DNA of 64,000 bases from a virus. Shown piece by piece: positions 363-20,347 of this stretch. Both the position numbers and the translations under genes were made by a program. Every line of letters begins with the position of its first letter. Position 1 is the first letter of the stretch. The DNA lies in the IMG/VR virus record IMGVR_UViG_3300035698_026135, positions 1 to 64,000 of that record. One strand, given 5' to 3'. Below the pieces are notes generated by a model. The model was given only the letters and a program-made list of their open reading frames with translations. It did no database searches and had not been told where the DNA came from.

Positions 363-1661
363 ATGAATAAAGAAAAAGATAAGAAGTTCACAATCGTTAC
401 CATATCAGATCATCCCTTGGCTTCATCAGGTGTCGGCCTTCAAATGCGTTACATCATTGACCATTTAGTCAAGACTGGCAAATTCAGAATCATTGCGATT
501 GCAGGAGCAATCAAACATAAAGATTATCAACCTCAAAAGTTTGAACAATGGGGAGAAGATGCAGTAATTCTTCCAATTGATGGTTATGGCAACAAAGATT
601 TGATGCGTCAGCTTATCGATATCGAGAAACCAGATGCAGTCTTTTTCATTACAGATCCTCGTTTTTATGGTTGGCTTTGGGAAATGGAAGCAGAAGTTCG
701 TCAACAGTGCCCCTTGATCTATTGGCACGTTTGGGACAATGGGCCATATCCAAAATACAATGAGACCGCTTATAAATCTAATAATTTTATTGGGTGCATC
801 AATAGACTTACTCACAAGTTTTTGTGTGAGAATGGATTTGCAGAGACAACCGAATATATTCCTCACGGCGTTCCAGAAGATGATTATAGACCGCTCCCTC
901 AGAAGGAGATAGATCAAGTACGACGCAATCATATTGGTGTCGACTGGAACGTAGAAGATTACTTTTTGATGTTTTACAACTCAAGAAACGCGCTTCGGAA
1001 ACGTACAGGCAACGGACTCTTTGCGTGGAAATTGTTTCTTGAAAAATTGACACCCGAGGAACGTGCAAAGTGCAGGTTTTGTATGCACACTCCACCCAAA
1101 GACCCAGAAGGACAAGACCTATTTAAGGTTTGCAATGCCCTTGGAGTCGAAAAAAATGTCGGGTTTAGCGCGACCAAAGTCGAGAACTCTGTCATGAATG
1201 AATTTTATCACATGTCCGATGTTACGATTTGTCCTAGTTCAGAGGAGGGTTTTGGTCTCTCGTGTCTTGAGAGCCTAATGGCTGGAACTCCAGTGATTGT
1301 AACCAAGACTGGTGGCCTACAGGACCAAGCGACCGACTGGGATACTGGGGAGGTCTTTGGTCATTGTATCGAGCCGGATGCTCGTTCATTGATCGGTTCG
1401 CAGACAACTCCGTACATTTGGAGTGATCATGTAGATCCACACACTATGGCGGATGCAATCCACGATCTCTATAAGAAGAAGATGGAATTTGGGTCCGAAT
1501 ACAAAGAGAAAGTCGCAGGAACCAAAGCTAGAGAGTCTGTGCGTCGTAGATTTGACCTACCCACGATTCAGAAGCAGTGGGAAAGAATTCTGCTTGAACA
1601 AATCGAGAAATTTAAAACTTCGAAAACAGAGAAACGAGTCATTAGATCTGTGACGCTGTGA
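363..1661 (+). CDS. Glycosyltransferase, GT4/GT-B family
   Basis: N-terminal SDHP..SSGVG; C-terminal RNALRK and PSSEEGFGLSCLESLMAGTPVI (E-x7-E motif). Confidence 0.9.
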   Translation: MNKEKDKKFTIVTISDHPLASSGVGLQMRYIIDHLVKTGKFRIIAIAGAIKHKDYQPQKFEQWGEDAVILPIDGYGNKDLMRQLIDIEKPDAVFFITDPRFYGWLWEMEAEVRQQCPLIYWHVWDNGPYPKYNETAYKSNNFIGCINRLTHKFLCENGFAETTEYIPHGVPEDDYRPLPQKEIDQVRRNHIGVDWNVEDYFLMFYNSRNALRKRTGNGLFAWKLFLEKLTPEERAKCRFCMHTPPKDPEGQDLFKVCNALGVEKNVGFSATKVENSVMNEFYHMSDVTICPSSEEGFGLSCLESLMAGTPVIVTKTGGLQDQATDWDTGEVFGHCIEPDARSLIGSQTTPYIWSDHVDPHTMADAIHDLYKKKMEFGSEYKEKVAGTKARESVRRRFDLPTIQKQWERILLEQIEKFKTSKTEKRVIRSVTL

Positions 1662-1822
1662 GACTTTATAATAAAGAAGAATATGAATTTTCTCTTGATC
1701 TTATTGAAGCTCTAACGAAAAAAGAAGATGGCGAAGAGCTTTCCGAAAAAGAGAAAGACACTCTTAGCAGAGCATCTAATATTGTGATAGAATACGAAGA
1801 GTATATTTTTGGTGAAGAATGA
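1658..1822 (+). CDS. 54-aa protein resembling the N-terminal helical domain of HigA-type antitoxins, with no HTH (not in ORF track)
   Basis: GTG overlaps the upstream TGA and its TGA overlaps the downstream ATG. Translation MRLYNKEEYEFSLDLIEALTKKEDGEELSEKEKDTLSRASNIVIEYEEYIFGEE. Confidence 0.5.
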   Translation: MRLYNKEEYEFSLDLIEALTKKEDGEELSEKEKDTLSRASNIVIEYEEYIFGEE

Positions 1823-2082
1823 AGAGCAACAAAAAAGCGGAGGTACTAATGGAGATGATTAAATCTGATTCGAGTGATTTCGATAGTAAAATGCTTTACC
1901 TCCTTGAGATGCAAAAAAACTTGGCCAGTCAAATGATAGGCATCGTAGAACATAAGGGCGATCTTAAACAAAAAGAGGTTGATAAGACACTCTCTTACTG
2001 TTTGCGCCAATTAACACACGGTATCGACGTTGTTGTCGAATACCTTCAGGACAGAATAGAAAAAGGCTATGGAGTAAATTAG
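1819..2082 (+). CDS. Hypothetical protein
   Basis: 87-aa ORF translationally coupled to both neighbours. Confidence 0.6.
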   Translation: MKSNKKAEVLMEMIKSDSSDFDSKMLYLLEMQKNLASQMIGIVEHKGDLKQKEVDKTLSYCLRQLTHGIDVVVEYLQDRIEKGYGVN

Positions 2083-4338
2083 ATGATTAACGGAAAAATT
2101 TTAGTTCACATTCGCGCACCCTTCCTCTCGCTGTCTGGGTATGGAGTTCACGCCCGACAGATTATAGATTATTTTCTTCAGGACGATAGATTCATCGTTG
2201 CGGGAGAGTCTATTAATTGGGGACATTGCCCATATATTCACAACCACCCAAAACAAGGCGAATATTATCAGGCACGTCAGAGATACGAAGAGGCAAAACA
2301 AAAGAATTTTGAATTTGATCTATCTGTCCATGTGACCATTCCAAACGAGTTTGTAAGAACTGCAACTGTGAACATCGGCGTCACGGCCGGAATTGAAGTT
2401 AATCAATGTACTCACCACTGGCTTGAAAAATGCGAAGAGATGGACATGATTGTTGTCCCAAGCGAGTTTTCAAAAACCGTTCTCTCTTCGACTGTCGCTG
2501 AATGGAAGAATATAGAAACTGGCGAGCAAGGCGTTAAAAGAATTACAAAACCAATTCATGTGATTCATGAATGGTTTGAAAAACCAGAAGAGCTTTCGGA
2601 TCAAATTCTTGATATGAAGTTCAATACAGAGAAAAATCTCCTTCATGTGGGCCAATGGGGCACAAAAGGCGGGTTTGGAGAGGATCGCAAGAACATTGCG
2701 GACCTTATTAAATATTTTTATGAATCTTTCAAGGATCGCTCTGATGTCGGACTTATCCTAAAAGCGAGCATCGTTTCCAATTCTGAGAAGGATTTCGAGG
2801 AACTTCAGAACAGAATCGGCCAAATTAAGAACAATTTTGCTGATGCCAAGTGTAAAGTTCACATTATTCACGACACCCTGACGAGACAAGAGATGTTTAG
2901 TCTCTATTCTCATCCTCAGATTCTCGGTTTTGTCTCGCTAACTCACGGAGAAGGGTATGGTCTGCCATTACTTGAGGCTGCGTCTTGTGGGCTCCCTGTT
3001 ATTGCAACGAATTGGTCTGGTCATCTAGATTTCCTTCGTCCCAAGAAAGGATTTCTACCTCTCGAATTTGATCTCATCCAAGTTCCCGAATGTCAAGTAT
3101 GGGCAGGCGTCATCGACAAAGAAGCCAAGTGGGCCAAAGTAAGAGAGAAGGACGCCAAGCGCGTCATGAAGAAATTTGTAGACAAAGCAGGCCCCGTAAA
3201 AGAAAAGGCTCTAGCAAGTGTCGCTTGGATCGATGAGAACTTCAGTAGAGAGGCAATTCTAAAAGATTGGAAAACTTTTATTGATAAAATCGTTGTCGAA
3301 AACCCTTCCAAAGATGCACCGACAAACAAAGAAGAACAGTATCGAGCTGATAAAAAATCTGCCTCCGAACAACTAAGAGAGAAGTTTGGAATCAAAGATA
3401 ACGGAAAAGAGAAGGTTATCTATATTATGCCCCAGTCAGCAGGCGATGTCCTGATTTCTACTGCTATCATTGAGCCCCTAATGAAGAATAGACATAGAGA
3501 TTCTGACTTTTATTTTGCTACGGCACCCCAATATCAAGAGCTATTAGAAGAGATTCCAGGCATTAACGTTATCGATTATCAACAAGAAATGATGCATATG
3601 GAGCTAATGGCAGATGTCTTCGATGTTGTATACAGCCCAGGAATCAATGTTCAATATTCCTTCTCGAATTGGCGCCTCGGAAACGGAATGTATGGCAACC
3701 TCCTTCTTGACGAATTTGCAAAAAACTGCAACATCTTCCCGAAAGAGATCGGCGACTACAATGCCGTCCCTAAAGAGTGTACTCTTCCAGATGGCGATTA
3801 TGTAACGTTCACTCCTGGTGGATCCAAGAGTGCGAAAGACTACGCATTTTGGGATGATGTTATCTCAAATTTCAAATCGAGCTTTCCTGAACTCAAGATC
3901 GTTCAAACCGGCCTCGACACAGAAAAGCTCTACAATGGAGTTGTTGATTATAGAGGCAAGACACTTAGGGAATCTCTCTACCTCGTCAAGAATGCTCAAC
4001 TACACTTCGGAGTAGAGACCTATACGTCACACGCCGCTGCGGCTTCTCTGACGCCGTACCTTGCACTCTATGGTAATACCGACCTGAACAACGTACAGCC
4101 GCGCCAACTCAGAGGAAAGCGGCCTCTCGGAGTTCTAATTGAGACCTCTGACAGGAACGGTTGCAAGGATGCGTGTTTCAAGGACGTTTGTTCGAACACT
4201 AAAAACGGAATGAATTGCATTTCCAACATTGATCCAAAATCGATTTGGGCCGCACTGATTGGTATGGTAGAACAAATAAATAAAGACGAAAAAGAAGATG
4301 CCGCACTCGTGGCAAAAGAAGCAGGAGCATTTCAATGA
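2083..4338 (+). CDS. Two-domain glycosyltransferase: N-terminal GT4-like plus C-terminal GT9 (heptosyltransferase-like)
   Basis: N-half: SGYGVHAR, RKN, EGYGLPLLEAASCGLPVI. C-half (from ~3410): SAGDVLISTA, GSKSAKDY, KTLRESLYLVKNAQLHFGVETYTSHAAAA..ALYG, and a Cys4 tail. Confidence 0.85.
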   Translation: MINGKILVHIRAPFLSLSGYGVHARQIIDYFLQDDRFIVAGESINWGHCPYIHNHPKQGEYYQARQRYEEAKQKNFEFDLSVHVTIPNEFVRTATVNIGVTAGIEVNQCTHHWLEKCEEMDMIVVPSEFSKTVLSSTVAEWKNIETGEQGVKRITKPIHVIHEWFEKPEELSDQILDMKFNTEKNLLHVGQWGTKGGFGEDRKNIADLIKYFYESFKDRSDVGLILKASIVSNSEKDFEELQNRIGQIKNNFADAKCKVHIIHDTLTRQEMFSLYSHPQILGFVSLTHGEGYGLPLLEAASCGLPVIATNWSGHLDFLRPKKGFLPLEFDLIQVPECQVWAGVIDKEAKWAKVREKDAKRVMKKFVDKAGPVKEKALASVAWIDENFSREAILKDWKTFIDKIVVENPSKDAPTNKEEQYRADKKSASEQLREKFGIKDNGKEKVIYIMPQSAGDVLISTAIIEPLMKNRHRDSDFYFATAPQYQELLEEIPGINVIDYQQEMMHMELMADVFDVVYSPGINVQYSFSNWRLGNGMYGNLLLDEFAKNCNIFPKEIGDYNAVPKECTLPDGDYVTFTPGGSKSAKDYAFWDDVISNFKSSFPELKIVQTGLDTEKLYNGVVDYRGKTLRESLYLVKNAQLHFGVETYTSHAAAASLTPYLALYGNTDLNNVQPRQLRGKRPLGVLIETSDRNGCKDACFKDVCSNTKNGMNCISNIDPKSIWAALIGMVEQINKDEKEDAALVAKEAGAFQ

Positions 4339-5297
4339 CAATTAAAATAAATTATGATCACAAATTTAAAGAAGGCTATCCTTCTATCGATGCCTATACT
4401 ACAACATATAACTGCTTGTCTGGGAAATATCCGTTCAGGGAAGCTATACGTTCATTCGCCTGGGCAGACAATCTTATCGTACTCGACGGAGGCAGTTCCG
4501 ATGGAACAAGAGAGGCATTAGATAAATTAAAAGAGGAGATCGGCGACCACATGGAAATTGTGGATATGCCCATCGACGAAGAAGATCCAGGAAAAGACGG
4601 AGCACAAAAGGCAATGGCTAGAGCAATGTGCTCGTCAGAGTTCTGTCTACAGTTTGATGCAGACGAGATTTGCGGAAAAGATTGCGAAACAAAATTCAAG
4701 AAGCTCGCAAAGAAATGTCCCTCAAATGTAAACGTTCTCTCGCTCCCCATCTTTGAGCATTGGGGTCCAGCTGAAGACTGGAACCTTAGAACAGATAGAC
4801 ACATTTGGAAGTGGCGCTTGAGTAGGAATTTGCCAGAAATTACACACGGCATCCCTGCGCAAGATCGTCTTGAACTCGACGGAAAAGTCTACTCAAAGGG
4901 CGGATCTGATGGATGTTTTCCTCTGAATATTGTCAACAATCAATTGATTCCAAATCACTTTCCAAACAATTGGATGAATGAGACCCTGGAGGGCGCCAGA
5001 ACATCAGGAGACCTTGTGAAATATAAGGAGATTCTAGAGAAAGTATTCAGCGATCTTCCATACGTCAAACATTACTCCTGGACAAACATCGAACAAAAGC
5101 TCACAATGTTAAGAGGGCCATGGAACAAGCTTTGGTGCGAACTCTACAATAAGGATCCAGAGTCCCCTGACAGCAATGATTATTTTGACGTAGCTTGGAA
5201 GGATGTAACCGACGATATGATTAAAGATAAAGCGATCGAACTATTGGCCCAGGGAGGACAATCTCCTGCACCCTTGCTTAACCTAAAGGTAGAATAA
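4335..5297 (+). CDS. Glycosyltransferase, GT2/GT-A family
   Basis: IVLDGGSSDGT and QFDADE (DxD) motifs. Confidence 0.85.
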   Translation: MTIKINYDHKFKEGYPSIDAYTTTYNCLSGKYPFREAIRSFAWADNLIVLDGGSSDGTREALDKLKEEIGDHMEIVDMPIDEEDPGKDGAQKAMARAMCSSEFCLQFDADEICGKDCETKFKKLAKKCPSNVNVLSLPIFEHWGPAEDWNLRTDRHIWKWRLSRNLPEITHGIPAQDRLELDGKVYSKGGSDGCFPLNIVNNQLIPNHFPNNWMNETLEGARTSGDLVKYKEILEKVFSDLPYVKHYSWTNIEQKLTMLRGPWNKLWCELYNKDPESPDSNDYFDVAWKDVTDDMIKDKAIELLAQGGQSPAPLLNLKVE

Positions 5298-5298
5298 A

Positions 5299-5490
5299 AT
5301 GGAAGAAGAACTCTTCACAGAGGCCCCCAAAACAACGCTTAATTCTAATATGATCATGCTTACTTGCATATCTAAGTTTAGAGAAGACTATAGGATGCTT
5401 TATCCGAACGATGTAAAAATCAACAAACAAATAACGGAGCTTCTGCACTCGATTGCGTGGAAGATAAAGAATCTAGAAGATCGTAAATAA
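5299..5490 (+). CDS. Hypothetical protein
   Basis: 63-aa ORF filling the operon; no recognised motif. Confidence 0.5.
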   Translation: MEEELFTEAPKTTLNSNMIMLTCISKFREDYRMLYPNDVKINKQITELLHSIAWKIKNLEDRK

Positions 5491-5627
5491 TGTCAAAAGT
5501 CATTCATTTCATGTCTCCTGTAAATCTCGTATCTTACTGTAGATTGGAGTTTAAAGATAGTAGTGAAGAAAATTGAGGAAGCAGAAAATATAAAAGATTT
5601 TTAGAGATAGAGGAAATGATTAAATAA
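5490..5627 (+). pseudogene. Interrupted mini-ORF, possibly a homing-endonuclease remnant
   Basis: A 46-codon frame runs from a TAATG overlap to a TAATG overlap with an in-frame TGA at 5574-5576; it ends ...RKYKRFLEIEEMIK. Confidence 0.3.
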
Positions 5628-6628
5628 TGCTAAAAATACTATTGAATTTTTATCATCCTGTCAGTTTTGATTTGGCAATAACCCTAAACAAGCTCGGCCA
5701 CAACGTAACGCTTTCTGTTGATATTAGTGTTGCTGACCATTATGGAAAATGGAGCGACGTACTATTGAAGGCACAAAAAGAACATAAAGAATTCGACTCC
5801 ATTTCGCTCAATCAAGCAGCGCTATTTATCAAAAATAAAAAATATGACTTGGTTGGTTTTGATGGTCCGTCAAAATCCGACAAACTCCTTGCGGAAGTGT
5901 GTAAAAAATGTAACGTTCCATTTTTCAACATTGTAGGATATCCAGGCACACCAGATAAAGAGTCTGAAAATCTTCTATCTTTTGGTTGGTTTACGCCAAC
6001 AATTCAATATATTCAAAAAAATCCATCAGAAGGGCACAAAAAACAGATAGATTGGAAGAATATAGCCGAAAAAGGCCGATCTGACATGAAGAATTTTTGT
6101 GTGTTTTGCCCCAATTTTTGGAAAATTAAGAAAACAATATTTGAAGATAATTACAGATTTTTTTCGGAAACTAGAATAATTAGCGGAATTCAGAGATATA
6201 AAGAGTGTAATGAGTACTGTTATGAAGTGTTCGAAAAATTAAAGGAAGATTTGAAGGATTTTTCGATTGATAACATAGAAGGAGAACCAAATGACGTATT
6301 TCAATCGAAATTAAGTCACTCCTCTGCTTTGATCCACTGCAAGGCTCAAGACCAACCCGGCATAGTTCTCCTTGAAGCCCTAATCATGGGAAAACCCGTT
6401 TATACAATGTCCTCCTTCGTCTATTCCTCCTTCAATCAAGACATTTTGATCGATGGATTTAACGCAATAGTTGCAGATTCATATGACGAACTCGTGATGA
6501 GAATAAGGGCGGAACACAACACTTTCGATAGACAGAAGATAGTTGATCACGCTCTTATGATGACGAGCTTCAAGAGACAAAAGGGTAAGATGGAAAGGTT
6601 TTTGAATAGGTGTGTAGATGGAAGTTAA
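5627..6628 (+). CDS. Divergent GT-B (GT4-like) glycosyltransferase
   Basis: C-terminal DQPGIVLLEALIMGKPV and DILIDGFNAIV resemble the GT4 nucleotide-binding region. Confidence 0.65.
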   Translation: MLKILLNFYHPVSFDLAITLNKLGHNVTLSVDISVADHYGKWSDVLLKAQKEHKEFDSISLNQAALFIKNKKYDLVGFDGPSKSDKLLAEVCKKCNVPFFNIVGYPGTPDKESENLLSFGWFTPTIQYIQKNPSEGHKKQIDWKNIAEKGRSDMKNFCVFCPNFWKIKKTIFEDNYRFFSETRIISGIQRYKECNEYCYEVFEKLKEDLKDFSIDNIEGEPNDVFQSKLSHSSALIHCKAQDQPGIVLLEALIMGKPVYTMSSFVYSSFNQDILIDGFNAIVADSYDELVMRIRAEHNTFDRQKIVDHALMMTSFKRQKGKMERFLNRCVDGS

Positions 6629-6818
6629 ACTCAAAAAAAGAAAAGAGAGAGATCACCTCTTATATATTGTTGAATATATAGCCTTCCTTCTGGATAACGA
6701 AAAATACGACGCCGCCATCGCGGTTGGACTTAGGAATAGCTGCAACATCGGAGAGATGTGTAGGGGTCGAGCCAAAACGGCAAAAGGATACAGATGGAGA
6801 TTCGCAAATGAAGCCTGA
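6618..6818 (+). pseudogene. Miniature homing-endonuclease remnant retaining a NUMOD1 C-terminus
   Basis: NIGEMCRGRAKTAKGYRWRF is a NUMOD1-type motif; no nuclease core in 66 aa. Confidence 0.6.
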
Positions 6819-7845
6819 AAATTTATGTTTATTGAACGCATCAAATCCTATTAATATAGAAAAAGAATCCGATGTTTATGTAGACTATCGCAAAGGTCCG
6901 TCTTCATATTTTGAGGGCAATAAGATGGTGAAAAAGGCGATTTCCTGGCACTCCATCCCAGCGTCGTTTTCAAGCGAATTTTTCGTCTATAAAAAGACTG
7001 GCTGGCAAGAATCCTTAAAATATGACCACGTTTTGGTCGGAATTAAAGATGATCCAGGTGCGGTTATACCGCTTATCAAAAAATTAAAATTAATGAAGAA
7101 AATTGTCGGGGTTTTTTACCACGAAAACCAGGACTACTTCTCTCTCCAGGCACAGAATCTACAGTGGTTAAAAGCAATGAAAGTTGCGTGCGATAAAGCA
7201 GACTATTTCTGGAACTCAAACATCCCTGCTCATGACTTTTTTGCGTCATTGATCGATAGGCCAGTTTTCTCTTGTTGGCTAGGATTTCCTTATGGCATTT
7301 GGGACCACGATTTCTCCGTTCCAGAAGAGAATCGAGAGGGTATTATTATAGGAACCAGGACCCTGTCTCAACAACTCAGAAGAAATTCTATTTTTGCGAT
7401 AGGAATAGTCAACAAGGTTGCCGAGAATCTTGGCGTTCCTGTCACATATTTTTCAGAAGACGGAATTGCAACAAAAGACCTTCAAGAAATTTTTAAAGAT
7501 ATGGGAATAGGAAACACGAGAATCATCCCTGGTCCTGTGAGCTACGAGGATTGGCTCAAATTGATTGCGGTTCACAAGGTGATGGTCCACGCCGATAGCT
7601 CTGGAACGGTGGGACAGGTCGTAGGAGACGCCGCAATGGTGAATGTTCCGTGTGTTGGGGGTATGACCACCAATAATCTGTTGCTTGGAACAGCATCAAG
7701 TCTCGACAGCCTTTCTGCCCTAGTTGCGGAGGCATACGAGAACCCAGGAAGAGCTGATTTAGAGAAGTTCAAGAAGGGAACAAGCCTAGAATCACTGAAA
7801 AAAGAGCACGAAAACACCCTTTTTCCCATGATTAAGGCGAAATAA
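6808..7845 (+). CDS. Divergent GT-B glycosyltransferase-like protein, paralog of 10200-11228 (start moved to ATG 6808)
   Basis: Shares LxNASNP, WHSIP, IPLIKKLKLM, YHE, RRN and GQV..DAA...V.CVGG with 10200-11228; the C-terminus resembles the GT4 donor-binding motif. Confidence 0.6.
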   Translation: MKPENLCLLNASNPINIEKESDVYVDYRKGPSSYFEGNKMVKKAISWHSIPASFSSEFFVYKKTGWQESLKYDHVLVGIKDDPGAVIPLIKKLKLMKKIVGVFYHENQDYFSLQAQNLQWLKAMKVACDKADYFWNSNIPAHDFFASLIDRPVFSCWLGFPYGIWDHDFSVPEENREGIIIGTRTLSQQLRRNSIFAIGIVNKVAENLGVPVTYFSEDGIATKDLQEIFKDMGIGNTRIIPGPVSYEDWLKLIAVHKVMVHADSSGTVGQVVGDAAMVNVPCVGGMTTNNLLLGTASSLDSLSALVAEAYENPGRADLEKFKKGTSLESLKKEHENTLFPMIKAK

Positions 7846-11228: not shown

Positions 11229-11583
11229 AAAGTATAATTTTAATATAAGATATTTTCAAGATATAGACTCCTATTATAGATTATATTATTCCGGAAATAA
11301 TAGTTGTTATAAGTTTCTTCATTGGCTTTACGATGACTCGGAATTTTTCCTAAAGAGAAAAAAAGATAAATTTATAAAAAATGAAAAATGGATAAATAAA
11401 AACGCTAGAAGAACTCCACATAGGCGCCCCGTGTGGCAAGTTGGCAAAGAGGGTAAACTCACCACCCTATTTGAGTCAGCGGTTCACATAGAGAGAGCCC
11501 TTGGGATAAAGTATCAAAACATAAGAGCTTGCTGTAATGGGTCACAAAAAACTGCGGGTGGATTTATGTGGGCTTGGGCATGA
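11221..11583 (+). pseudogene. Internally deleted LAGLIDADG-type homing endonuclease with C-terminal NUMOD1
   Basis: MSRKYNFNIRYFQDID (typical N-terminus) is joined directly to YRLYYSG..KFLHWLYDDSEFFLKRKKDKF (typical C-terminus), then NUMOD1 PVWQ..G.L...FES....RALGI...NIRACCNG.QKTAGGFMW. Confidence 0.6.
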
Positions 11584-13118
11584 AAAAAATATGTTTAATA
11601 GTTGCCAGGTCAATTTTCCTATTGGATGAGCGAGTTTTTCCCTTTCTTGGAATTCTTCGTTGTGCCGCCTCCTGGGAGAGAGATGGCGCCAAAGTAGACG
11701 TGATTGATCTATCTGGAGTTGAAAATTATTTAGAGGTCTTAGAAGAATATTTTGACCAAAATAAAGATATTGAGTTTGCGGGCGTTACAGCAACCACTCC
11801 ACAAATGAAAAATGCTTACGAAATAGGAAAATTGATAAAAGAAAAATATGGCCACAAGACAGTCATAGGAGGGAGCCATGCAACATTGATGCATACATCA
11901 ATGAAGCAAGAAATAAAGAGGGGCGACTTAGAGGGAAGGGCCAAAAAAGATATTGATTATATTAAAAAGTATTTTGATGTAATTGTCTGCGGCGACGGAG
12001 AACTTGTTCTTGAGGCCATAAGAGAAATAGATAACGGAGTTATTGATGTGGACGACAGATTCTCTCCTTATTTTATGTCTAAGGAGACGTTTTCAGAGTT
12101 ACCAAATCCCGCAAGACACCTGATAGACATGGACAGCTATAAATATACAATTGATGGAGTTTCTGCAACAAGTATGATCTCGCAACTCGGTTGTCCCTAT
12201 CAATGCACGTTTTGCTCGGGGAGAAACTCTCCATACCTTCGAATGGTAAGACAAAGAAGCGTTGGGTCCGTTATTGAAGAGATAGAACTTTTGCACAAGA
12301 CGTATGGATATAAAGCGTTCAACTTCTTTGATGATGAATTGAATTTAACAAAATCTTTTGTTCCGTTAATGAACGGCCTGTCAGACCTACAAGCCAAGCT
12401 TGGGGTAGATTTTAAATTTCGAGGATTTACAAAATCAGAACTTTTCACAAAAGAGCAGGCGAAAGCAATGAAGGCTGCCGGTTTTAGCATTCTTCTTACC
12501 GGATTTGAGTCCGGGGATGATAGAATATTAAAAAACATAAGAAAGCGCGCAACAAGAGATGATAATACTAGGTGTGTAGAAAACGCAAAAGAAGCCGGAC
12601 TTAAAGTTAAGGCACTCATGTCTTGCGGTCACGCTGGCGAAACACCAGAAACAATTGAAAATACTAAAAAGTGGCTTCTTGAGGTAGAGCCCGAAGATTT
12701 CGACTTGACGGTAATTTCAGTTTTTCCTGGATCTCCGTACTTTGATTCGGCCCTCTATAGCAAGGAGGATGATTGTTATATTTACACGCAGCCAGACACT
12801 GGTGACAAATTATATCAAAAAATTGTTGACTATACACAGGAGGCAAATTTTTACAAAGGCATTCCTGGAGAATATGTTTCTTATGTGTGGACCGATTTTA
12901 TGACAGCGGAAGAAATAGTAAAAACTAGAGACGCCCTCGAGTCCGACGTAAGGGCAAAATTAAACATTCCATTTAATCCTTCTGGGGCCACGAGGTCCAT
13001 AGAGCACTCTATGGGATCTAGCAGAAACCTTCCAGACTGGATTCTTCGCTCTAGCGGCGACTATTCCGCTCCCAAGCGAGAGAAGAAAGAAGAGAAGAGG
13101 AGACTTGGCATACTTTAA
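11580..13118 (+). CDS. Cobalamin(B12)-binding radical SAM protein (class B methyltransferase-like); start at ATG 11580
   Basis: PFLGILR and GGSHAT B12-binding region; GCPYQCTFC (CxxxCxxC); FFDDEL; GFESG. Confidence 0.9.
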   Translation: MKKICLIVARSIFLLDERVFPFLGILRCAASWERDGAKVDVIDLSGVENYLEVLEEYFDQNKDIEFAGVTATTPQMKNAYEIGKLIKEKYGHKTVIGGSHATLMHTSMKQEIKRGDLEGRAKKDIDYIKKYFDVIVCGDGELVLEAIREIDNGVIDVDDRFSPYFMSKETFSELPNPARHLIDMDSYKYTIDGVSATSMISQLGCPYQCTFCSGRNSPYLRMVRQRSVGSVIEEIELLHKTYGYKAFNFFDDELNLTKSFVPLMNGLSDLQAKLGVDFKFRGFTKSELFTKEQAKAMKAAGFSILLTGFESGDDRILKNIRKRATRDDNTRCVENAKEAGLKVKALMSCGHAGETPETIENTKKWLLEVEPEDFDLTVISVFPGSPYFDSALYSKEDDCYIYTQPDTGDKLYQKIVDYTQEANFYKGIPGEYVSYVWTDFMTAEEIVKTRDALESDVRAKLNIPFNPSGATRSIEHSMGSSRNLPDWILRSSGDYSAPKREKKEEKRRLGIL

Positions 13119-13501
13119 TGAACATCATAGACTCACTCGACAGAATAAAACAATTGTGTAGCCCAAAACACACAATCATATTGGATTATTACCCAATAAG
13201 ACCAATCCTAAATTTAAACGGAGGCTCAAATTCATCCCTCCAAAGCATTTCTCCCAACAACAGAGTGAAAGCCAGAGACTATAGCTTATCGGCCCTGAGA
13301 GAAATAGAAAACACATCTGTAGCCACAACCCACAGAGACTCTTTGCTGTGTGATGATGACGGATTTGTTATCTCTCCATCGATGTGCGACAGTTATTCGC
13401 ACTATCAACACAGCCATAAAATAGGCGACATCATTTTGGCCGATCATTTGATCGGCAAGATAAAAGACGCCCTAAATAAAAAGAATTTGCGCTGGAAATA
13501 A
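13118..13501 (+). CDS. Hypothetical protein
   Basis: 127-aa ORF with a TAATG overlap; no motif. Confidence 0.5.
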   Translation: MNIIDSLDRIKQLCSPKHTIILDYYPIRPILNLNGGSNSSLQSISPNNRVKARDYSLSALREIENTSVATTHRDSLLCDDDGFVISPSMCDSYSHYQHSHKIGDIILADHLIGKIKDALNKKNLRWK

Positions 13502-13503
13502 TA

Positions 13504-14166
13504 ATGTCAGTTGAAAAAATAGTTAAATATATCGAATCGTTCGATCAAGGCAAGATCGACAACAAGTACAGGGAGTATTTGGACACTATCAAGGTTATGA
13601 CGGGCGCCGGAATAGTGCAACTACTGAACAATTCTTGTTTTTTGATGGATGAAGGCAATTGCTATTTAGAGGTTGGCTGCCATATGGGAAGCACGCTTCT
13701 AGGAGCTGCTCTCGACAACGATAAACATCTATTTGTCGGCGTGGACAACTTTCAAGATGAGCCGAAAACAAAAATTTACAAGACGTCAGAAGAGGGACTG
13801 AAGGACGTAATTCAAAAAAGAACAAGGGGAAACGTTAAATATTACAACACAACCTATCAGAAATTCTTTTACGGAAAAGATCAAGTCGACAACAGAAAAG
13901 TAGAGATCTATATGTACGACGCCGATCATAGCTGCCACCACCAATACGAAGGGTTAAAAAAAGTAATTCCCTCACTGGCAGATGATGCTATAATCTTTAT
14001 TGATGACTCCAACGAGCAAGATGCACGACATGTTTGGTGGGGTATAAAGAAACTAATGAAAGAGCATCCAGACAACATCTCTATTGTCAGAGAATTTAAG
14101 AACGAAAAACAGAATGACATTGACGGAATGTGGAACGGAACTATTGCTTTGAGATATAAAAAATAA
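13504..14166 (+). CDS. Class I SAM-dependent O-methyltransferase (Methyltransf_24-like)
   Basis: YLEVGCHMGST, GVDNF, YDADHS, IIFIDD. Confidence 0.8.
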   Translation: MSVEKIVKYIESFDQGKIDNKYREYLDTIKVMTGAGIVQLLNNSCFLMDEGNCYLEVGCHMGSTLLGAALDNDKHLFVGVDNFQDEPKTKIYKTSEEGLKDVIQKRTRGNVKYYNTTYQKFFYGKDQVDNRKVEIYMYDADHSCHHQYEGLKKVIPSLADDAIIFIDDSNEQDARHVWWGIKKLMKEHPDNISIVREFKNEKQNDIDGMWNGTIALRYKK

Positions 14167-14840
14167 TGACAACGCTCGCACAAATAAAGCGCGATTATTG
14201 CGTATATGTCTTGATTGATCCCAGGCCTAACAAGAACAAGGTTTTTTACGTGGGGAAAAGTAGTTTAGATAGACTACAAAAAAGAAAGTGTGAACACAGA
14301 CATTTCAGAAAGGACGAATCCTCACACAAAAAGAACGTAATAAAAAATATCTTAAAAGAAGGTTGCGAATTTAAGATGAAGGTCGTAAAGTCTGGTCTCA
14401 CGGAACAACAGTCTTTTTATTATAAAGAATTTTTAATCAAATCTTTAAAATATCTTTGCGGCTTCAAGTTGACCAATGGAAATACCAGTGGAAACGGCGG
14501 CACTTCTGGGAGAGTGTGCAAACAGGAACAAAGACAAAATTTGAGCATGAAGAGATTCGGAAAGGGCAATCCTATGTACGGAGCAACACCCTGGAATAAA
14601 GGAAGGGGCCTTACGGACGAACATATACAAAAAATACGCATCGCGAGAAAAAATCAAAAATCTTGGAAAAAAGTTCCCATAATTGCAATAAATAAGGAGA
14701 ATGGTGCTTGCAGTGTTTTTAGGTCTATTTCATCCGCTTCTAAAATTTTAAAAATCAACAAAGGAAAAATTAGAAAACTTCTAGATAAAAATCTAGGAGA
14801 TCTATCGGTTTATTTCTATAGGTGTAACAATGGATCTTAA
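14166..14840 (+). CDS. GIY-YIG homing endonuclease with NUMOD3/NUMOD1-like tail (possibly inactive)
   Basis: YCVYVLIDPR..VFYVGK, LTN..SGNGG, GKGNPMYG.TPWNKG; the Glu position appears to be Lys (YYKEFLI). Confidence 0.8.
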   Translation: MTTLAQIKRDYCVYVLIDPRPNKNKVFYVGKSSLDRLQKRKCEHRHFRKDESSHKKNVIKNILKEGCEFKMKVVKSGLTEQQSFYYKEFLIKSLKYLCGFKLTNGNTSGNGGTSGRVCKQEQRQNLSMKRFGKGNPMYGATPWNKGRGLTDEHIQKIRIARKNQKSWKKVPIIAINKENGACSVFRSISSASKILKINKGKIRKLLDKNLGDLSVYFYRCNNGS

Positions 14841-15741
14841 TCTTTCGACGCTGACAATGAATGCCTCTGGCCTTTTGATGAATTATTTGGATCATTATTC
14901 GTATTTATTTGATAATATTTTTGTTTGTGACGGCAATTTGACAAAAGAGGCAAGAAAATTCTACTCTAGACGAAGGGAGAACGTCCATGTAATCGATATG
15001 CCCTGGGACGATAATTATGTAGATCGTTACAAAAAAACAGCAGAGCTATCAAACGATGGAGATTGGATTCTCCATTTAGACGATGATGAATTAATATCAA
15101 GCGAGCTGGTTGATTTTTTGCAGTCTAGAAATTTTAATCCTGACCTTAATATGTATTGGCTTCCTTGTATACTACACATAACAGAAGCCGGCGAAAGATA
15201 TTATCCGGCTGAAAAACAGCCCAAAAAAGGATTTGAAGGCCAGTGGACAAAAAAAATTCTTTATAAAAAGACTTCATCTCTAAGATTCGCACACGGGGGG
15301 TCACATGTAGTGCCCAACAACTCACCACACGAATATCTGCCGCTCCCTTATTATCATATGAAATCCCTTGAGAGCTTTGTTTATAACGATGTATGGCAAG
15401 CATTCCTTCACCCCGAAGGGCAAGGGTACAACGCAGTAGAATCAGCCCAGTTTAAACTTTTCGTCAAACAATATAAGACCACCGACGACTTCAAGTTAGC
15501 AACCAAAAATGGCTCTTGGCCCGTCACGTTGCAAAAATTTGCCAAGACACACGCTAAAGAATTCGATCGGCCGATTAGCCGTCTTGCATGGGTCTATTGG
15601 ATACTCGAAGGACATAGAGATTTGTCCCCATTAGACATTAATCTAACTTGGGACGAAGTGAAAAATTACGTTCTCGGCAAAAAAAATATGGAGATAATAG
15701 ATGAAGCTAAAGGCTTGGAAAAATTCATTAAAATCGTGTAA
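14830..15741 (+). CDS. Glycosyltransferase, GT2/GT-A-like
   Basis: IFVCDG and DWILHLDDDE (DxD) motifs. Confidence 0.7.
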   Translation: MDLNLSTLTMNASGLLMNYLDHYSYLFDNIFVCDGNLTKEARKFYSRRRENVHVIDMPWDDNYVDRYKKTAELSNDGDWILHLDDDELISSELVDFLQSRNFNPDLNMYWLPCILHITEAGERYYPAEKQPKKGFEGQWTKKILYKKTSSLRFAHGGSHVVPNNSPHEYLPLPYYHMKSLESFVYNDVWQAFLHPEGQGYNAVESAQFKLFVKQYKTTDDFKLATKNGSWPVTLQKFAKTHAKEFDRPISRLAWVYWILEGHRDLSPLDINLTWDEVKNYVLGKKNMEIIDEAKGLEKFIKIV

Positions 15742-16021
15742 ATTTCTAGCATTGTTGATTGTTTTTGAAAACTTTCTTGATTGCGTTTTTACATATATCG
15801 GCTTAAATTACGCCGGAGGCAAAGAATTAAATCCTCTTATGGACTATTTGATAAATCATAGTTGGGCAACCTTTTTCGTCGTAAAAATGTCTCTGGTCAC
15901 CGGCTGCACTTATATTTTATATTTTTTCAAACAGAGAAAATTTCTATTTCTCCTCTCTTGCTTTTATGGTGTTTTGGTATTATACTATATTGGCGCGTTT
16001 ATTAAGATTTTTCTATTATGA
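15701..16021 (+). CDS. Small membrane protein, DUF5658-like
   Basis: LDxxFT..GL...ELNPLM...F...K pattern; three hydrophobic helices. Confidence 0.6.
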   Translation: MKLKAWKNSLKSCKFLALLIVFENFLDCVFTYIGLNYAGGKELNPLMDYLINHSWATFFVVKMSLVTGCTYILYFFKQRKFLFLLSCFYGVLVLYYIGAFIKIFLL

Positions 16022-16197
16022 TGTACGAATATGAGTGTGAAGAGTGCGGAAAACTCTTCGATATAGAACAGAGAATTGTAGAAGACCCGCTCGAAGAATG
16101 TCCTAGTGCGGAATGCAAAGGAAAGCTGAATAGATTAATTTCAAAGACTTCCTTTATACTAAAAGGGAAGAATTGGTTTAATAAAGATGGATATTAA
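16018..16197 (+). CDS. FmdB-family zinc-ribbon protein, 59 aa (not in ORF track)
   Basis: MMYEYECEECG..F...Q.I.EDPL..CP..C.G.L.RLIS...F.LKG..W...GY. Confidence 0.85.
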   Translation: MMYEYECEECGKLFDIEQRIVEDPLEECPSAECKGKLNRLISKTSFILKGKNWFNKDGY

Positions 16198-17086
16198 GAA
16201 AATTTGTTGCTTAGGCGGAGGGTTTATCGGATCAACTCTCTATAAAACGTTCTCACAGCTTCATAAATATGATGTTTGCTTGCACGATATCAACCAAGAG
16301 GGCTGTAGAGCCAACAAGGAGCTTGAGAATGTAAATTTCGTAGACCTTGAGGCTGCTGCTTCTTGTGATTTTGTATTTATTGCATTGCCGACCCCCATGG
16401 ATCTCGACACAGGTGAGTGTCATACCAGATTTGTCGAGTCTGCCGTCGCAAACGTGCGTGCACACAACAAAGACAACATAATCATCATTAAATCTACGGT
16501 CCCGCCAGGAACAACGGAAAAATTAAACTTCTCTTACGGAAAAATCATCTTTAATCCTGAGTTTCTTACAGAAAAAACGCCATACAAAGATTTTATTAGC
16601 CTTCCGTACCAAATTCTTGGCGCGCCCACGGCCGAGGAAGCGGTTTGTGCTGATGCTGTCTCCGACATATTTCACGAAGCAAGATTTAAAGACGTGATAA
16701 AGTGCGACAAAGTGTTTGTAACGAGTTCAAGAATGGCCGAGATGACAAAATACGTTCGCAACGCGTATCTCGCAGTTCGATTGTCTTATTTCAACGAGAT
16801 TAAACAAATTTCCGATGAGTTGGGATTGGAATACGACAGTTTAAAATTCTACGCAGGCATGGACAAAAGAATTGGGAACCACTACAACAAGATTGATAAC
16901 GACGAACCAGAGTGGTCCGGATCGTGTCTCCCAAAAGATGTCAATTCTTTAATTTCTATAGCAAAATCTTTAGAGATTGATCCAAAAGTTTTATCTGCCG
17001 CTTGGGATAAGAATGTAGAAATAGCAAAAAAGAAAACCTGGAAAACAATGCCCGGTAGAGCCGTAATCAAAATTGACAAACCCTAA
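16187..17086 (+). CDS. UDP-glucose/GDP-mannose dehydrogenase family protein lacking the C-terminal domain
   Basis: GGGFIG Rossmann motif, FIALPTP, IIKSTVPPGT, NPEFL, GSCLPKD (catalytic Cys). Confidence 0.85.
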   Translation: MDIKKICCLGGGFIGSTLYKTFSQLHKYDVCLHDINQEGCRANKELENVNFVDLEAAASCDFVFIALPTPMDLDTGECHTRFVESAVANVRAHNKDNIIIIKSTVPPGTTEKLNFSYGKIIFNPEFLTEKTPYKDFISLPYQILGAPTAEEAVCADAVSDIFHEARFKDVIKCDKVFVTSSRMAEMTKYVRNAYLAVRLSYFNEIKQISDELGLEYDSLKFYAGMDKRIGNHYNKIDNDEPEWSGSCLPKDVNSLISIAKSLEIDPKVLSAAWDKNVEIAKKKTWKTMPGRAVIKIDKP

Positions 17087-17101
17087 CCGAGAGACTATAG
17101 T
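17073..17101 (+). promoter_or_regulatory. Near-consensus sigma70 promoter; likely leaderless transcript of the HldC-like gene
   Basis: TTGACA(17073-78)-N17-TATAGT(17096-17101); ATG at 17108 with no SD. Confidence 0.7.
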
Positions 17102-17107
17102 TTAAAC

Positions 17108-17647
17108 ATGGTACATATCTTAACGGGCGCCAAGATTTCTGCGCCGTCGAAAAAAGAGCTTCTATATGATCCGAAGGTGCGAGACGCTTTCACGTTAGGT
17201 AATTCAATTAGAGTCCTAAGGACGACTCGCCCCCGGCTCAAGGTTGGATTTACAAATGGTACGTTTAAAATTCTAACCCCAGCCCACTGCGTGTTTTTGA
17301 CGTTATGTAGAACTAAGTGCGACGTTCTTGTTGTTGGAATGAATAGCGATTATTCTCTTCGATTACTTAAGAGAGAGTCTCCTTTCACCACACAGGAGAG
17401 AGCGTTCTCTCTAGCTACGCTTCATCCGGTTGATTATGTAACAACTTTTGATCAAGAGACTCCTGAGCTTTGTATTTCGAAACTAGATGTTGATGTCGTC
17501 TTTAAGGGGCCCGACTATAAGAAGGAGGATGTTGTTTGTATGGGCAAAGAAGTAGAAATCATAGAGCACCCTTTCAATATTCACACGAGTGAGATTCTGA
17601 GGTCCAAGAAGGATTCAGAAAACAAATACTTCAACGTCTGCGAATGA
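17108..17647 (+). CDS. Heptose-1-phosphate nucleotidyltransferase-like protein (RfaE domain II/HldC-like), divergent
   Basis: VGFTNGTFKILTPAH, LVVGMNSD.S...LK..SP....ER, VDYVTTFDQETP, KGPDY. Confidence 0.8.
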   Translation: MVHILTGAKISAPSKKELLYDPKVRDAFTLGNSIRVLRTTRPRLKVGFTNGTFKILTPAHCVFLTLCRTKCDVLVVGMNSDYSLRLLKRESPFTTQERAFSLATLHPVDYVTTFDQETPELCISKLDVDVVFKGPDYKKEDVVCMGKEVEIIEHPFNIHTSEILRSKKDSENKYFNVCE

Positions 17648-18516
17648 ATACCGACGAAAGAATACTTGTTGTCGGAGACAGCATCTTAGATATCTATAGC
17701 TACGGAAGCGTCGATCGCGTGTCTCCAGAGGCTCCCTGCTTCGTTTTAGACCACAGTCATGAAGAACGCACCCTCGGTGGTGCATGCAACACAGCGGCCA
17801 ACATCAGGTCTCTGAGCGGTATGTGCGATTTAAAGATAGATTATTTCGGATATAATTCCCTCGCCCTAGAAAAAATGTTTAGTGAATACAATATTAATTG
17901 TATCGGAATTCCTATCGAGGAAGACAAAATCCTAACAAAGAGACGGTTCGTTTGCAAGAATCAACAGCTTCTCAGGGTCGACAATAGAAAAAGATATGAT
18001 GACAAAGCTATTTCTGCTGCCTCTTCGATGAAGTTTTCGAATATAGATTTTAAAAAATATAATCTCATCGTAGTTTCCGATTATGACAAAGGAACAATTG
18101 GAGTTGAAGAGTTTGAAACGCTGGCAACATCCGGTGTTCCAATAATTGTGGACCTAAAAAGAGTTAGAAAGAGCATGCCAAATTTCAAAGGCCTCTCTTG
18201 CATCTTTAAGTGTAACGAAAAAGAATATGATGAGAACCCTTTCATATCCTTGCTCTCTGACGAGGTTGTTGTTACGCTAGGGAGTAGTGGATATTCTCTT
18301 ATAAACACGAGAGAGGCCTTCCCAGCCACCGTCCAAGGAGGAAGGGTTGTTGATGTTATTGGCGCTGGAGATTCGTATCTTGCAGGAATGTGTGTAAATT
18401 TTATGGAAACCCGCGAGTTTGATGTACATAAGATGACAGCCTTTGGAAACAAGGCCGCAGGAGAGAAGGTAAAGCATTTCGGGACTCTCGCGGTAAAAAG
18501 GAGTATGATTGAGTGA
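17644..18516 (+). CDS. Heptose-7-phosphate kinase-like protein (RfaE domain I/HldA-like, PfkB family)
   Basis: VVGDSILDIY.YG.VDRVSPEAP, LGGACNTAANI, QQLLRVD, VSDYDKG, VDVIGAGD. Confidence 0.85.
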   Translation: MNTDERILVVGDSILDIYSYGSVDRVSPEAPCFVLDHSHEERTLGGACNTAANIRSLSGMCDLKIDYFGYNSLALEKMFSEYNINCIGIPIEEDKILTKRRFVCKNQQLLRVDNRKRYDDKAISAASSMKFSNIDFKKYNLIVVSDYDKGTIGVEEFETLATSGVPIIVDLKRVRKSMPNFKGLSCIFKCNEKEYDENPFISLLSDEVVVTLGSSGYSLINTREAFPATVQGGRVVDVIGAGDSYLAGMCVNFMETREFDVHKMTAFGNKAAGEKVKHFGTLAVKRSMIE

Positions 18517-19736
18517 TTTTGTCCGAAAACCCAAAATCAAAATGGTCAAAACAAAAAGTGGATTGTCGCTGCGATAAATGCAATTCTGAATTTGCAAGAA
18601 GATATGATATATTATACAAGAAAAAAGAACACTTATGTCAAACTTGTATTAATTTAGCAAACGGCGACCGTTTGCGAGGCCGCACTAGAATAAGAGTTGC
18701 CGTAGAAAAAGTTGCTGCTGCCCTCCGCGCACTAGGAGAAAGAAATAGGGTAACTCTATCTTGTGTTTATTGTTCAGAATCTTTTGTGGTTCCATATGCC
18801 AAACGAAGCAGGAAGTTTTGTTCAAGAGCCTGTTCTTCGAAAGGACAGGGAAGAAGAGTGGGTAAAAACAAAAATCTTTCTTTGTGCAAAATTTGCAAAG
18901 AAGAATTTAGCCATTATGGATCAAGAGATGTCTGTAGTCGCTCTTGTAATGTTGTAAAAATGAAAAAAGAGCGGCTCGGATCAAATAATCCGTCGTTCAA
19001 AGGAGAGGACAAATACACTAATAGGGAGTGTCCCAACTGCGGCGATGCCTTCAAGTTTTCAAGTGTCGGCCCACACAGAGATCAGGATAGGACCTTTTGC
19101 TCTCAGGAATGTTCTCATCTTTATCAGGTTGGTAAAAATAGTCCCCTCTTCCTTGAGGGGATAGATAGAGAATACCCTACTGAATTTAATAATAAATTAA
19201 GAAAAAAAATTCGAAAAAGAGACGATTTTGAATGCTCTCTCTGCGGAGGCGAAGAAGATAAAAAGCTAAGCATTCATCATATAGATTATAACAAAAGCAA
19301 TTTAAACGAAAACAATCTAATCACTCTTTGCTCTTCGTGTCATGCAACAACAAATTTTAATAGAGAGTTTTGGTCAATTTTTTATTCTGCGGTTTTATCT
19401 GGTTGCAAGATCGTAAAAAAGGGGTGGGGATGTGAAGCACACATCGTTAATAATGAAAGTTATTGTCTTAAATATTTGATATTTTTCCCAGGAAAAAAGT
19501 TTTCAAATCATTATCATTTACAAAAAAAAGAAACGTGGCATTGTTTGATCGGAAGCTTTTGTTGCTACATAGAGGATGACGAAGATACAAATTATTTTGT
19601 ATTTAAAAAAGGCGATATAATCACCCTAGAGAGGGGCGTAAAGCATCAGATTAAGGCGAATCAGTATTCTATTTTAACCGAGGTTTCAACTCAAGACTTT
19701 AAGGAAGACTCCTACAGGATCAAACGTGGAGACTGA
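18513..19736 (+). CDS. Zn-finger/HNH endonuclease fused in frame to a C-terminal cupin (sugar isomerase/epimerase-like)
   Basis: Repeated CxxC..FCSxxC motifs; RD.F.C..CG..LSIHHIDYNK.N....NLITLC..CH; from ~19407 KIVKKGWG.E..IVN...YC.K...F.PG...S.HYH..K.ETW...H..EVST.....DSYRI.RGD. Confidence 0.8.
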   Translation: MILSENPKSKWSKQKVDCRCDKCNSEFARRYDILYKKKEHLCQTCINLANGDRLRGRTRIRVAVEKVAAALRALGERNRVTLSCVYCSESFVVPYAKRSRKFCSRACSSKGQGRRVGKNKNLSLCKICKEEFSHYGSRDVCSRSCNVVKMKKERLGSNNPSFKGEDKYTNRECPNCGDAFKFSSVGPHRDQDRTFCSQECSHLYQVGKNSPLFLEGIDREYPTEFNNKLRKKIRKRDDFECSLCGGEEDKKLSIHHIDYNKSNLNENNLITLCSSCHATTNFNREFWSIFYSAVLSGCKIVKKGWGCEAHIVNNESYCLKYLIFFPGKKFSNHYHLQKKETWHCLIGSFCCYIEDDEDTNYFVFKKGDIITLERGVKHQIKANQYSILTEVSTQDFKEDSYRIKRGD

Positions 19737-20335: not shown

Positions 20336-20347
20336 GGAGATAGAAAA

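Follow-up and report, generated by a model that had tools for sequence, protein, structure and literature searches.

A conserved glycosyltransferase pair followed by a variable sugar-gene slot in a Far-T4-type phage

What does a T4-like phage build with about nine glycosyltransferase (GT) domains, and on what is the product placed? The question is raised by the block of sugar genes at positions 363-19736 (+ strand) of the window, i.e. the 64,000-nucleotide stretch analysed here, which makes up the first 64 kb of the 113,329-bp IMG/VR contig IMGVR_UViG_3300035698_026135 (CheckV completeness approximately 52%). The best explanation of the block is a locus of two layers that builds a glycan entirely in the cytoplasm; most useful among its new features is a conserved primer pair of GTs followed by a swappable cargo slot. 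Virion proteins are the leading candidates for the acceptor, a reading that we infer from gene content and to which we assign a probability of about 45%. All enzyme classes named in an initial annotation of the window were recovered in the block by Pfam, PHROG, NCBIfam and homologue profiles, and the estimate of about nine GT domains was borne out by Pfam, Atlas structures, homologue profiles and hhalign.

A conserved GT pair ahead of a hypervariable slot

The major capsid protein encoded on the contig has counterparts of 34-43% identity in Microcystis phage Mel-JY01, Flavobacterium phage immuto and Rhodothermus phage RM378. By this measure the phage belongs to the Far-T4 type of T4-like myoviruses. 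Glycosyltransferases are unmentioned in the Far-T4 genome paper (PMC4360716). The features that frame the locus are the following.

363-1661, + strand: core GT-A, a GT4-family enzyme of GT-B fold (Pfam Glycos_transf_1, 5e-17; EX7E motif intact)
2083-3390, + strand: core GT-B, a GT4-family enzyme forming the N-terminal half of a 751-residue fusion protein (Pfam; EX7E motif invariant)
21155-21820, + strand: first conserved gene past the cargo slot (ortholog in about 31 relatives)

Both core proteins combine the GT-B fold with the EX7E motif of the C-terminal domain and belong to CAZy family GT4; the glutamates of the motif (E295/E303 in GT-A, E290/E298 in GT-B) are invariant or nearly so among homologues. 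AlphaFold2 models were obtained with pLDDT (predicted local distance difference test) scores of 91 for GT-A and 93 for GT-B. The best PDB match of both models is the chlorovirus NY-2A glycosyltransferase 3OY2, at a sequence identity of 13-18% and with a negligible lead over bacterial GT4 enzymes (2.2e-18 versus 2.6e-18). The next fold neighbours are MshA, BshA, sucrose-phosphate synthase, TreT, GlgM, WaaG and PimB′, and giant-virus GTs are prominent among the neighbours in BFVD. The protein O-GlcNAc transferases SdgB and GtfA ranked no better than the small-molecule GTs in the fold search.

The island had no megablast match among 50,697 phage records, and single-protein scans of IMG/VR with the 751-residue GT or with the HldA-like kinase described below retrieved nothing; IMG/VR relatives were retrieved only with a three-sequence alignment as query. 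This alignment-based scan found a relative of GT-B encoded on at least 570 IMG/VR contigs. The locus comparison was made on 80 fetched relatives, some counts being given over 82 loci. GT-A directly precedes GT-B in 78 of the 82 loci, and orthologs of the two are adjacent in immuto and Mel-JY01. By profile hidden Markov models the pair is also present in a complete 180.7-kb relative (G001) and in RM378 (Rm378p013 and p014, 2e-68 and 1.6e-17), a genome that had been picked as a negative control. The pair is thus kept in phages whose hosts (Rhodothermus, Flavobacterium, Microcystis) belong to three different phyla. At E ≤ 1e-5, tblastn with GT-B as query retrieved no relative from any cyanomyovirus. 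Genome comparison shows that GT-A and GT-B belong to the core gene set throughout the Far-T4-type lineage, and whatever the target of the glycan, the pair is a simple marker by which hundreds of such loci can be located.

Some neighbouring lineages and paralogues were also observed. The 484-kb uncultured phage LR756508.1 carries a GT-A ortholog at 305408-306712 (6.8e-79) with one in-frame TGA and has no convincing GT-B, and the 595-kb phage LR756511.1 has neither gene. In Mel-JY01 a GT-B paralogue at 4750-8430 is fused to an FkbM methyltransferase (1226 residues), followed by a cytidylyltransferase-like gene at 11243.

The cargo slot behind the pair spans approximately 3400-21150 in this phage. 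In about 31 of the 80 relatives the slot is empty, the ortholog of 21155-21820 starting 250-370 bp after GT-B; this ortholog precedes the baseplate-hub genes. The distance from GT-B to the next conserved gene is 0.5-9 kb in the other loci and 16.8 kb here. The cargo genes of the window are almost without counterparts in the loci of the relatives, with the exception of one locus, L004, which has in common the GT4-GT9(-GT2) fusion, the radical-SAM (S-adenosylmethionine) enzyme (52% identity) and the cupin. A Pfam survey of 148 non-redundant open reading frames (ORFs) showed that the cargo of the relatives consists mostly of NAD-dependent epimerases/dehydratases, GDP-mannose dehydratase, RmlD and PseB-type enzymes, with GT2, methyltransferases, radical SAM/B12 enzymes, DegT, cytidylyltransferases, cupins and NeuB also frequent. 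By this comparison the slot after the pair is hypervariable, being empty in many relatives and filled with differing putative nucleotide-sugar and tailoring genes elsewhere.

The left edge of the block is artificial since the window begins at contig base 1, and its functional right edge lies at approximately 21150, compared with 19736 in the initial annotation. That annotation had also stressed the co-orientation of the genes. This is true of the block, but nearly every ORF of the contig lies on the + strand, so that co-orientation carries no information.

Enzymes of the cargo and the heptose reading

The cargo genes with a putative role in glycan synthesis are listed below.

3370-4338, + strand: GT9 (heptosyltransferase-family) domain fused to GT-B (PF01075 profile; ends in a Cys4 cluster)
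4335-5297, + strand: GT2 glycosyltransferase (Pfam; fused to the GT4-GT9 protein in L004)
5627-6628, + strand: divergent GT-B-fold glycosyltransferase (profile of 14 homologues)
6724-7845, + strand: divergent GT-B glycosyltransferase (Atlas structure, TM 0.72-0.86 to Glycos_transf_1 clusters)
7845-8576, + strand: remote GT9-like protein of 243 residues (hhalign against the GT9 profile, 92%, E 5.6e-7)
8573-9247 and 9244-9792, + strand: two adjacent SAM methyltransferases (Methyltransf_23, 5.5e-12; Methyltransf_11, 1.4e-8)
10200-11228, + strand: divergent GT-B glycosyltransferase (Atlas structure; paralogue of 6724-7845)
11568-13118, + strand: B12-binding radical-SAM enzyme, class B (Radical_SAM, 5e-24; B12-binding, 6e-8)
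13504-14166, + strand: SAM methyltransferase (Methyltransf_24)
14830-15741, + strand: weak GT2-like glycosyltransferase (Glyco_tranf_2_4, 3.8e-5, below cut-off)
15701-16021, + strand: small DUF5658 protein of 106 residues (three hydrophobic segments; the sole membrane-type ORF of the block)
16187-17086, + strand: short UGD-like nucleoside-diphosphate-sugar dehydrogenase (TIGR03026, 2e-46, positions 70-299 of 413)
17108-17647, + strand: HldC-like heptose-1-phosphate adenylyltransferase (rfaE_dom_II, 8.6e-26)
17644-18516, + strand: HldA-like heptose-7-phosphate kinase, PfkB family (rfaE_dom_I, 1.1e-44, full length)

The GT9 domain, i.e. the C-terminal 322 residues of the 751-residue protein, scores 21.7 bits on its own against a PF01075 cut-off of 22. 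It has 498 relatives in a library of 1.84 billion proteins, and PF01075 was detected in all 38 homologues scanned (best 1.3e-17), which assigns the domain to Pfam Glyco_transf_9 and CAZy GT9. Against the PDB the homologue profile matched the lipopolysaccharide (LPS) heptosyltransferase II WaaF (1PSW, 6e-21), 3TOV (3e-20), WaaC (5e-8) and TibC (3e-5). Only the donor half of the domain aligns, the acceptor-side N-domain being unlike the LPS enzymes. The domain falls outside the TibC/AAH group of autotransporter heptosyltransferases, as it matches the LPS enzymes better than TibC and no autotransporter-type acceptor gene turned up in the block. The GT9 C-terminus carries Cys694, 698, 703 and 712 (4162-4218) in the spacing Cys-x3-Cys-x4-Cys-x8-Cys, found in approximately half of the 38 homologues, and this Cys4 cluster may be a metal site. 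The GT4-GT9 fusion occurs in L004 as well.

Four ORFs without a Pfam match gave nothing usable in phmmer searches of the PDB and were assigned by means of the ESM Atlas, homologue profiles and hhalign. A single one of the 14 homologues of 5627-6628 contains PF00534, and their profile matches the mannosyltransferase WbaZ-1 at 1e-3. The ORFs 6724-7845 and 10200-11228 are paralogues (37% identity), and their Atlas models superpose on Glycos_transf_1 clusters with TM scores of 0.66-0.76. The remote GT9-like protein at 7845-8576 had no Pfam or PDB match by itself, and its hhalign match to GT9 spans the donor-binding half only.

For the tailoring enzymes, the radical-SAM protein at 11568-13118 is a probable sugar C-methylase, judged from its domains; its nearest NCBIfam models are HpnJ, PhpK and BchE, all far under their cut-offs. 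Its ortholog in L004 was mentioned above, and Radical_SAM and B12-binding domains recur in the cargo of the relatives. The UGD-like ORF contains the NAD-binding domain with the GxGxxG motif, GSCLPKD and the catalytic Cys, and is without the UDP-binding C-domain. That it might be a truncated pseudogene was rejected on the grounds that the catalytic Cys is kept and that short forms are present in 18 relatives (238-339 residues, mostly 278-339). Short UGD-like genes (e.g. L038:6928-7845 and L056:3902-4837) are often located just 5′ of the core pair, even beside an empty slot.

The HldC-like protein scores 90 bits against an equivalog cut-off of 181, and the HldA-like kinase 153 bits against 345. 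The kinase is 28-33% identical to genes annotated as heptose or carbohydrate kinases in T4-like cyanophages. A GT9 is present in the cargo of all four loci with the HldA/HldC pair and in 4 of the 77 loci without it (Fisher's exact p = 4e-5), a co-occurrence that supports a working donor-transferase unit as predicted from the families. The methylated, heptose-containing glycan proposed in the initial annotation is thereby supported, both by the gene content and by this association in the relatives.

Candidate acceptors of the glycan

The steps suggested by the enzyme families may be depicted as follows: HldA- and HldC-like enzymes would turn host-made heptose phosphates into ADP-heptose, the heptose would be added by one or two GT9-type transferases, five further GTs would extend the chain, and methylation would be carried out by the three SAM methyltransferases and the B12 radical-SAM enzyme. 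The core pair would prime a phage-encoded acceptor, most likely exposed tail or baseplate proteins rich in Ser/Thr-Gly-Ser, and the cargo enzymes would diversify the glycan, akin to bacterial O-antigen or flagellin glycosylation islands.

The initial annotation had proposed the particle of the phage itself as the target, and this is favoured by three observations. The retention of the pair across three host phyla argues that the acceptor is brought by the phage. The enzymes are soluble, as none of the GTs of the window has a hydrophobic span and its only multi-span ORF is the DUF5658 protein. Finally, the motif Ser/Thr-Gly-Ser ([ST]GS) is concentrated in tail proteins: six ORFs of this phage, all of tail or baseplate type, are enriched (34 observed versus 4.9 expected), the remainder showing an observed/expected ratio of 1.0. 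Each of the five pair-bearing genomes (this phage, G001, Mel-JY01, immuto and RM378) has 5-10 enriched ORFs, and outside these ORFs the ratio is 1.0-1.3 for four of the genomes and 1.95 for RM378. T4, which is without the pair, has no enriched ORF (ratio 0.76). In Mel-JY01 an annotated structural protein at 3065-4591 contains 13 [ST]GS motifs versus 2.5 expected and lies directly before the GT-B-FkbM paralogue. LR756511.1 and LR756508.1, taken as closer controls than T4, showed no enrichment within their 41-kb head regions, a result of little weight since head proteins are not the enriched class in the present phage either. The co-occurrence of sugar genes and motif, which the initial annotation had put forward as a check, is accordingly seen in five pair-bearing genomes and not in T4, but the five genomes form one clade.

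Several points weigh against this reading. The link between motif and GTs is that of one clade, effectively one evolutionary event, and T4 is the single, distant negative control. In RM378, immuto and Mel-JY01 the pair is located among genes for replication and nucleotide metabolism and not among structural genes. No late-promoter-like motif was found before any start in 1-26,600, a result that is ambiguous on timing. The fold searches of both core GTs returned generic GT4 neighbours only, and the fold therefore does not reveal the acceptor. In its sequence the GT9 domain resembles LPS heptosyltransferase II more than the protein heptosyltransferase TibC, and the HldA- and HldC-like proteins fall so far under their equivalog cut-offs that the sugar may be other than heptose. 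GmhA (SIS domain, PF13580; the control was positive in 13 of 14 genomes) and GmhB (TIGR00213) were not found in the 113-kb, approximately 52% complete contig, so that steps 1 and 3 of the heptose pathway would be supplied by the host or by genes in the missing half of the genome. The block can hence no longer be called a self-contained island, as in the initial annotation, since it consists of a core pair common to the lineage and a variable cargo without GmhA and GmhB. By contrast with the first 26,600 positions, many virion genes from 26618 on have the late-promoter-like motif [CAT]TA[TA]TTAA ahead of them.

A wider version of the virion-protein reading is more tentative. In this scheme all Far-T4-type phages, which form an abundant lineage in aquatic environments, would O-glycosylate exposed Ser/Thr-Gly-Ser sites of tail and baseplate proteins by means of the GT4 pair and then extend the glycan with their own swappable rare-sugar genes. 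The rare sugars would be heptose, nonulosonic acids and amino- or methyl-sugars, and the scheme would be a viral counterpart of O-antigen and flagellin diversification. If virion proteins are indeed the target, a globally common T4-like lineage would wear a self-made, strain-variable sugar coat, which would matter for how hosts are recognised, how stable the particles are and how many are lost in water to grazing and adsorption, and the prediction of host range from tail-fibre sequence alone would change. The phages immuto, Mel-JY01 and RM378 are cultured carriers of the pair and are open to ordinary mass spectrometry.

Remodelling of the host envelope, the alternative already raised in the initial annotation, is unlikely, although it comes second to virion proteins. 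Soluble GTs would modify the LPS core, lipid A-Kdo or some other host glycolipid at the inner membrane face, and would thereby block superinfection or keep progeny off debris, as proposed for the cyanophage 'LPS clusters'. HldA/HldC homologues are present in the cyanophages P-SSM2, S-SSM7 and S-CAM1, the GT9 profile is nearest to WaaF, WaaG and PimB′ are among the fold neighbours of the core GTs, and the need for host GmhA and GmhB implies a heptose-making host. The GTs of the LPS core are themselves soluble or peripheral, and the lack of membrane spans is therefore compatible with such a role. However, a single envelope acceptor common to hosts of three phyla is improbable, and the acceptor-side N-domain of the GT9 differs from that of the LPS enzymes. 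No protein resembling a polytopic flippase, polymerase, ligase or initiating phosphoglycosyltransferase was found among the 388 cargo ORFs of the relatives, none of which (0/388) has two or more hydrophobic spans; the polytopic membrane proteins of a Wzx/Wzy- or ABC-type surface polysaccharide locus are thus missing. A host-surface polysaccharide is disfavoured as the target on these grounds, but the GTs may act on the LPS core from within the cytoplasm. With an envelope target, these strictly lytic phages would share, throughout the lineage, a function for taking over the host.

Another cytoplasmic acceptor, either a free or small-molecule glycoside (similar to a natural product or compatible solute) or a non-structural protein of phage or host, is less probable again. 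The nearest folds of the core GTs include the small-molecule GT4 enzymes MshA, BshA, sucrose-phosphate synthase, TreT and GlgM, the combination of a B12 radical-SAM enzyme with methyltransferases is typical of sugar tailoring in antibiotic pathways, and the pair lies amid early-type genes in the three cultured relatives. Against this, variable sugars on a conserved primer pair are more what one expects of a surface exposed to diversifying selection than of a metabolite, export and scaffold genes are absent from the locus, and about nine GT domains imply an oligo- or polysaccharide.

Hypermodification of DNA, in which the GTs would put heptose or other sugars on a hydroxylated base, is highly improbable. 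It has precedents in phage GT-B enzymes that together with a nucleotidyltransferase place mono- or di-heptose on 5-hydroxymethylcytosine (bioRxiv 10.1101/2023.12.21.572611) and in GT4-like arabinosyltransferases that act on the DNA of RB69 and DLP3 (PMC13326640); hypervariable glycans would also suit an arms race with restriction enzymes, and the contig is merely about 52% complete. Family searches, however, detected no ThyA-family, Tet_JBP, C5-methyltransferase or TGT gene in the 113-kb contig and were likewise negative for ThyA and Tet_JBP in G001 and Mel-JY01, two complete genomes that carry the pair, so that no enzyme supplying a base hydroxyl was found in any of the three; such searches can miss divergent genes, as the Pfam TGT search missed the divergent DpdA3 of immuto. 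The most direct result comes from immuto, which carries the orthologous pair and approximately 10 kb of sugar cargo. Liquid chromatography with UV detection and tandem mass spectrometry of immuto_2-6A virion DNA showed canonical dA, dC and dT, the G being replaced by non-glycosylated fdPreQ1 (324 Da), and no glycosylated nucleoside was reported (PMC10516641). Immuto does have an ordinary-looking ThyA, but the dC and dT of its DNA are canonical. A phage with pair and cargo yet unglycosylated DNA speaks strongly against DNA being the conserved acceptor, and the statement of the initial annotation that genes for DNA glycosylation are missing agrees both with the gene searches and with this measurement. 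A queuosine-type glycosylated deazaguanine was rejected as well, since the modified G of immuto has the plain mass of fdPreQ1 (PMC10516641).

Neighbouring genes and comparison with known systems

Among the genes for glycan synthesis, the cargo contains mobile inserts.

9752-10216, + strand: homing endonuclease, EndoVII/HNH type, a mobile insert outside the pathway (phrog_1035, 5e-26)
11182-11583, + strand: remnant of a NUMOD-domain homing endonuclease (domain match)
14166-14840, + strand: GIY-YIG/NUMOD homing endonuclease (domain match)
18513-19736, + strand: HNH homing endonuclease (approximately residues 1-290) fused in frame to a 110-residue cupin (298-407) (phrog_1271, 7.6e-31; phrog_7851, 1.1e-29)

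The block is thus interrupted by four homing-endonuclease ORFs, the last reaching to approximately 19390. The HNH-cupin ORF has no internal ATG and the cupin stands alone in L004; the ORF is either a true fusion or contains a cupin that starts at a non-ATG codon. Two further homing endonucleases are present at 24088-24786 and 25524-26216 (phrog_314), giving six in 26 kb, two of them amid the baseplate-hub genes, which is unusually dense.

The baseplate and head genes that the initial annotation had placed downstream of the block were found by PHROG matches, with genes for the baseplate wedge, SbcCD, large terminase, portal, prohead protease and major capsid protein located 3′ of it. At the start of the baseplate module (22350-23456 and 23456-24088) an SGNH/GDSL-DUF459 hydrolase domain adjoins a gp5/VgrG-like (DUF2345) piece, and this domain may be a tail-tip esterase replacing the gp5 lysozyme of T4. 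The ORF at 45601-48669 (1022 residues) joins SbcD-like (residues 1-291) and SbcC-like (375-1015) nuclease subunits. The ORF at 57318-59030 has its prohead-protease domain (residues 439-567) behind an N-terminal region of approximately 430 residues, which gave weak, probably spurious matches to thymidylate synthase and ribonucleotide reductase PHROGs.

The locus is a new variation on known phage glycan clusters. It resembles the 'LPS gene clusters' of the T4-like cyanophages P-SSM2, S-SSM7 and S-CAM1, which are likewise large, lytic and of T4 type and have genes for sugar epimerases, transferases and synthases grouped in blocks; the two sugar-gene clusters of P-SSM2 have been interpreted as LPS genes (Sullivan et al. 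2005, PMC1079782), i.e. as serving to modify the host LPS. An HldA-like kinase stands beside an HldC-like nucleotidyltransferase in these clusters as it does here, with a function deduced from sequence in both. The cyanophage clusters belong to another phage lineage, whereas here a lineage-wide primer pair precedes the variable slot.

The ADP-heptose pathway of Gram-negative bacteria, with WaaC, WaaF and TibC, has in common with the locus kinase- and adenylyltransferase-like domains, the donor half of GT9 and perhaps the C-terminal Cys4 cluster, which may correspond to the iron finger of TibC. The differences are the missing isomerase and phosphatase, the scores of both HldA- and HldC-like proteins below the equivalog cut-offs, the unrelated acceptor half, the fusion of GT9 to GT4 and the lack of an autotransporter acceptor. 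Clusters for sugar hypermodification of phage DNA (the T4 alpha- and beta-GTs, RB69/DLP3 and the methyltransferase- or TET-dependent systems) likewise combine GT-B enzymes with nucleotide-sugar genes, can neighbour structural genes and include heptose among the known appendages; the DNA of RB69 and DLP3 contains arabinosyl-5-hydroxycytosine (PMC13326640). They are set apart by their base-hydroxylating enzymes, none of which was found here or in the complete relatives, and by the unglycosylated DNA of immuto.

Closest to the virion-protein reading are two systems in which viruses use their own enzymes. Mycobacteriophages glycosylate their own capsid and tail-tube proteins (Freeman et al. 2023, as cited in PMC12619734), and by the summary in PMC12619734 the glycans are located at the C-termini of the capsid and tail-tube subunits. 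The likeness lies in phage-encoded soluble GTs acting on structural proteins of the phage in the cytoplasm. The candidate sites in the present phage are internal [ST]GS motifs of tail and baseplate proteins, and the locus is far larger with its approximately nine GT domains. Chloroviruses and giant viruses (reviewed in PMC9614988) also encode cytoplasmic glycan genes, among them 3OY2, the best match of the core GTs; their hosts are eukaryotic, and the resemblance to 3OY2 is one of fold at the low identity given above.

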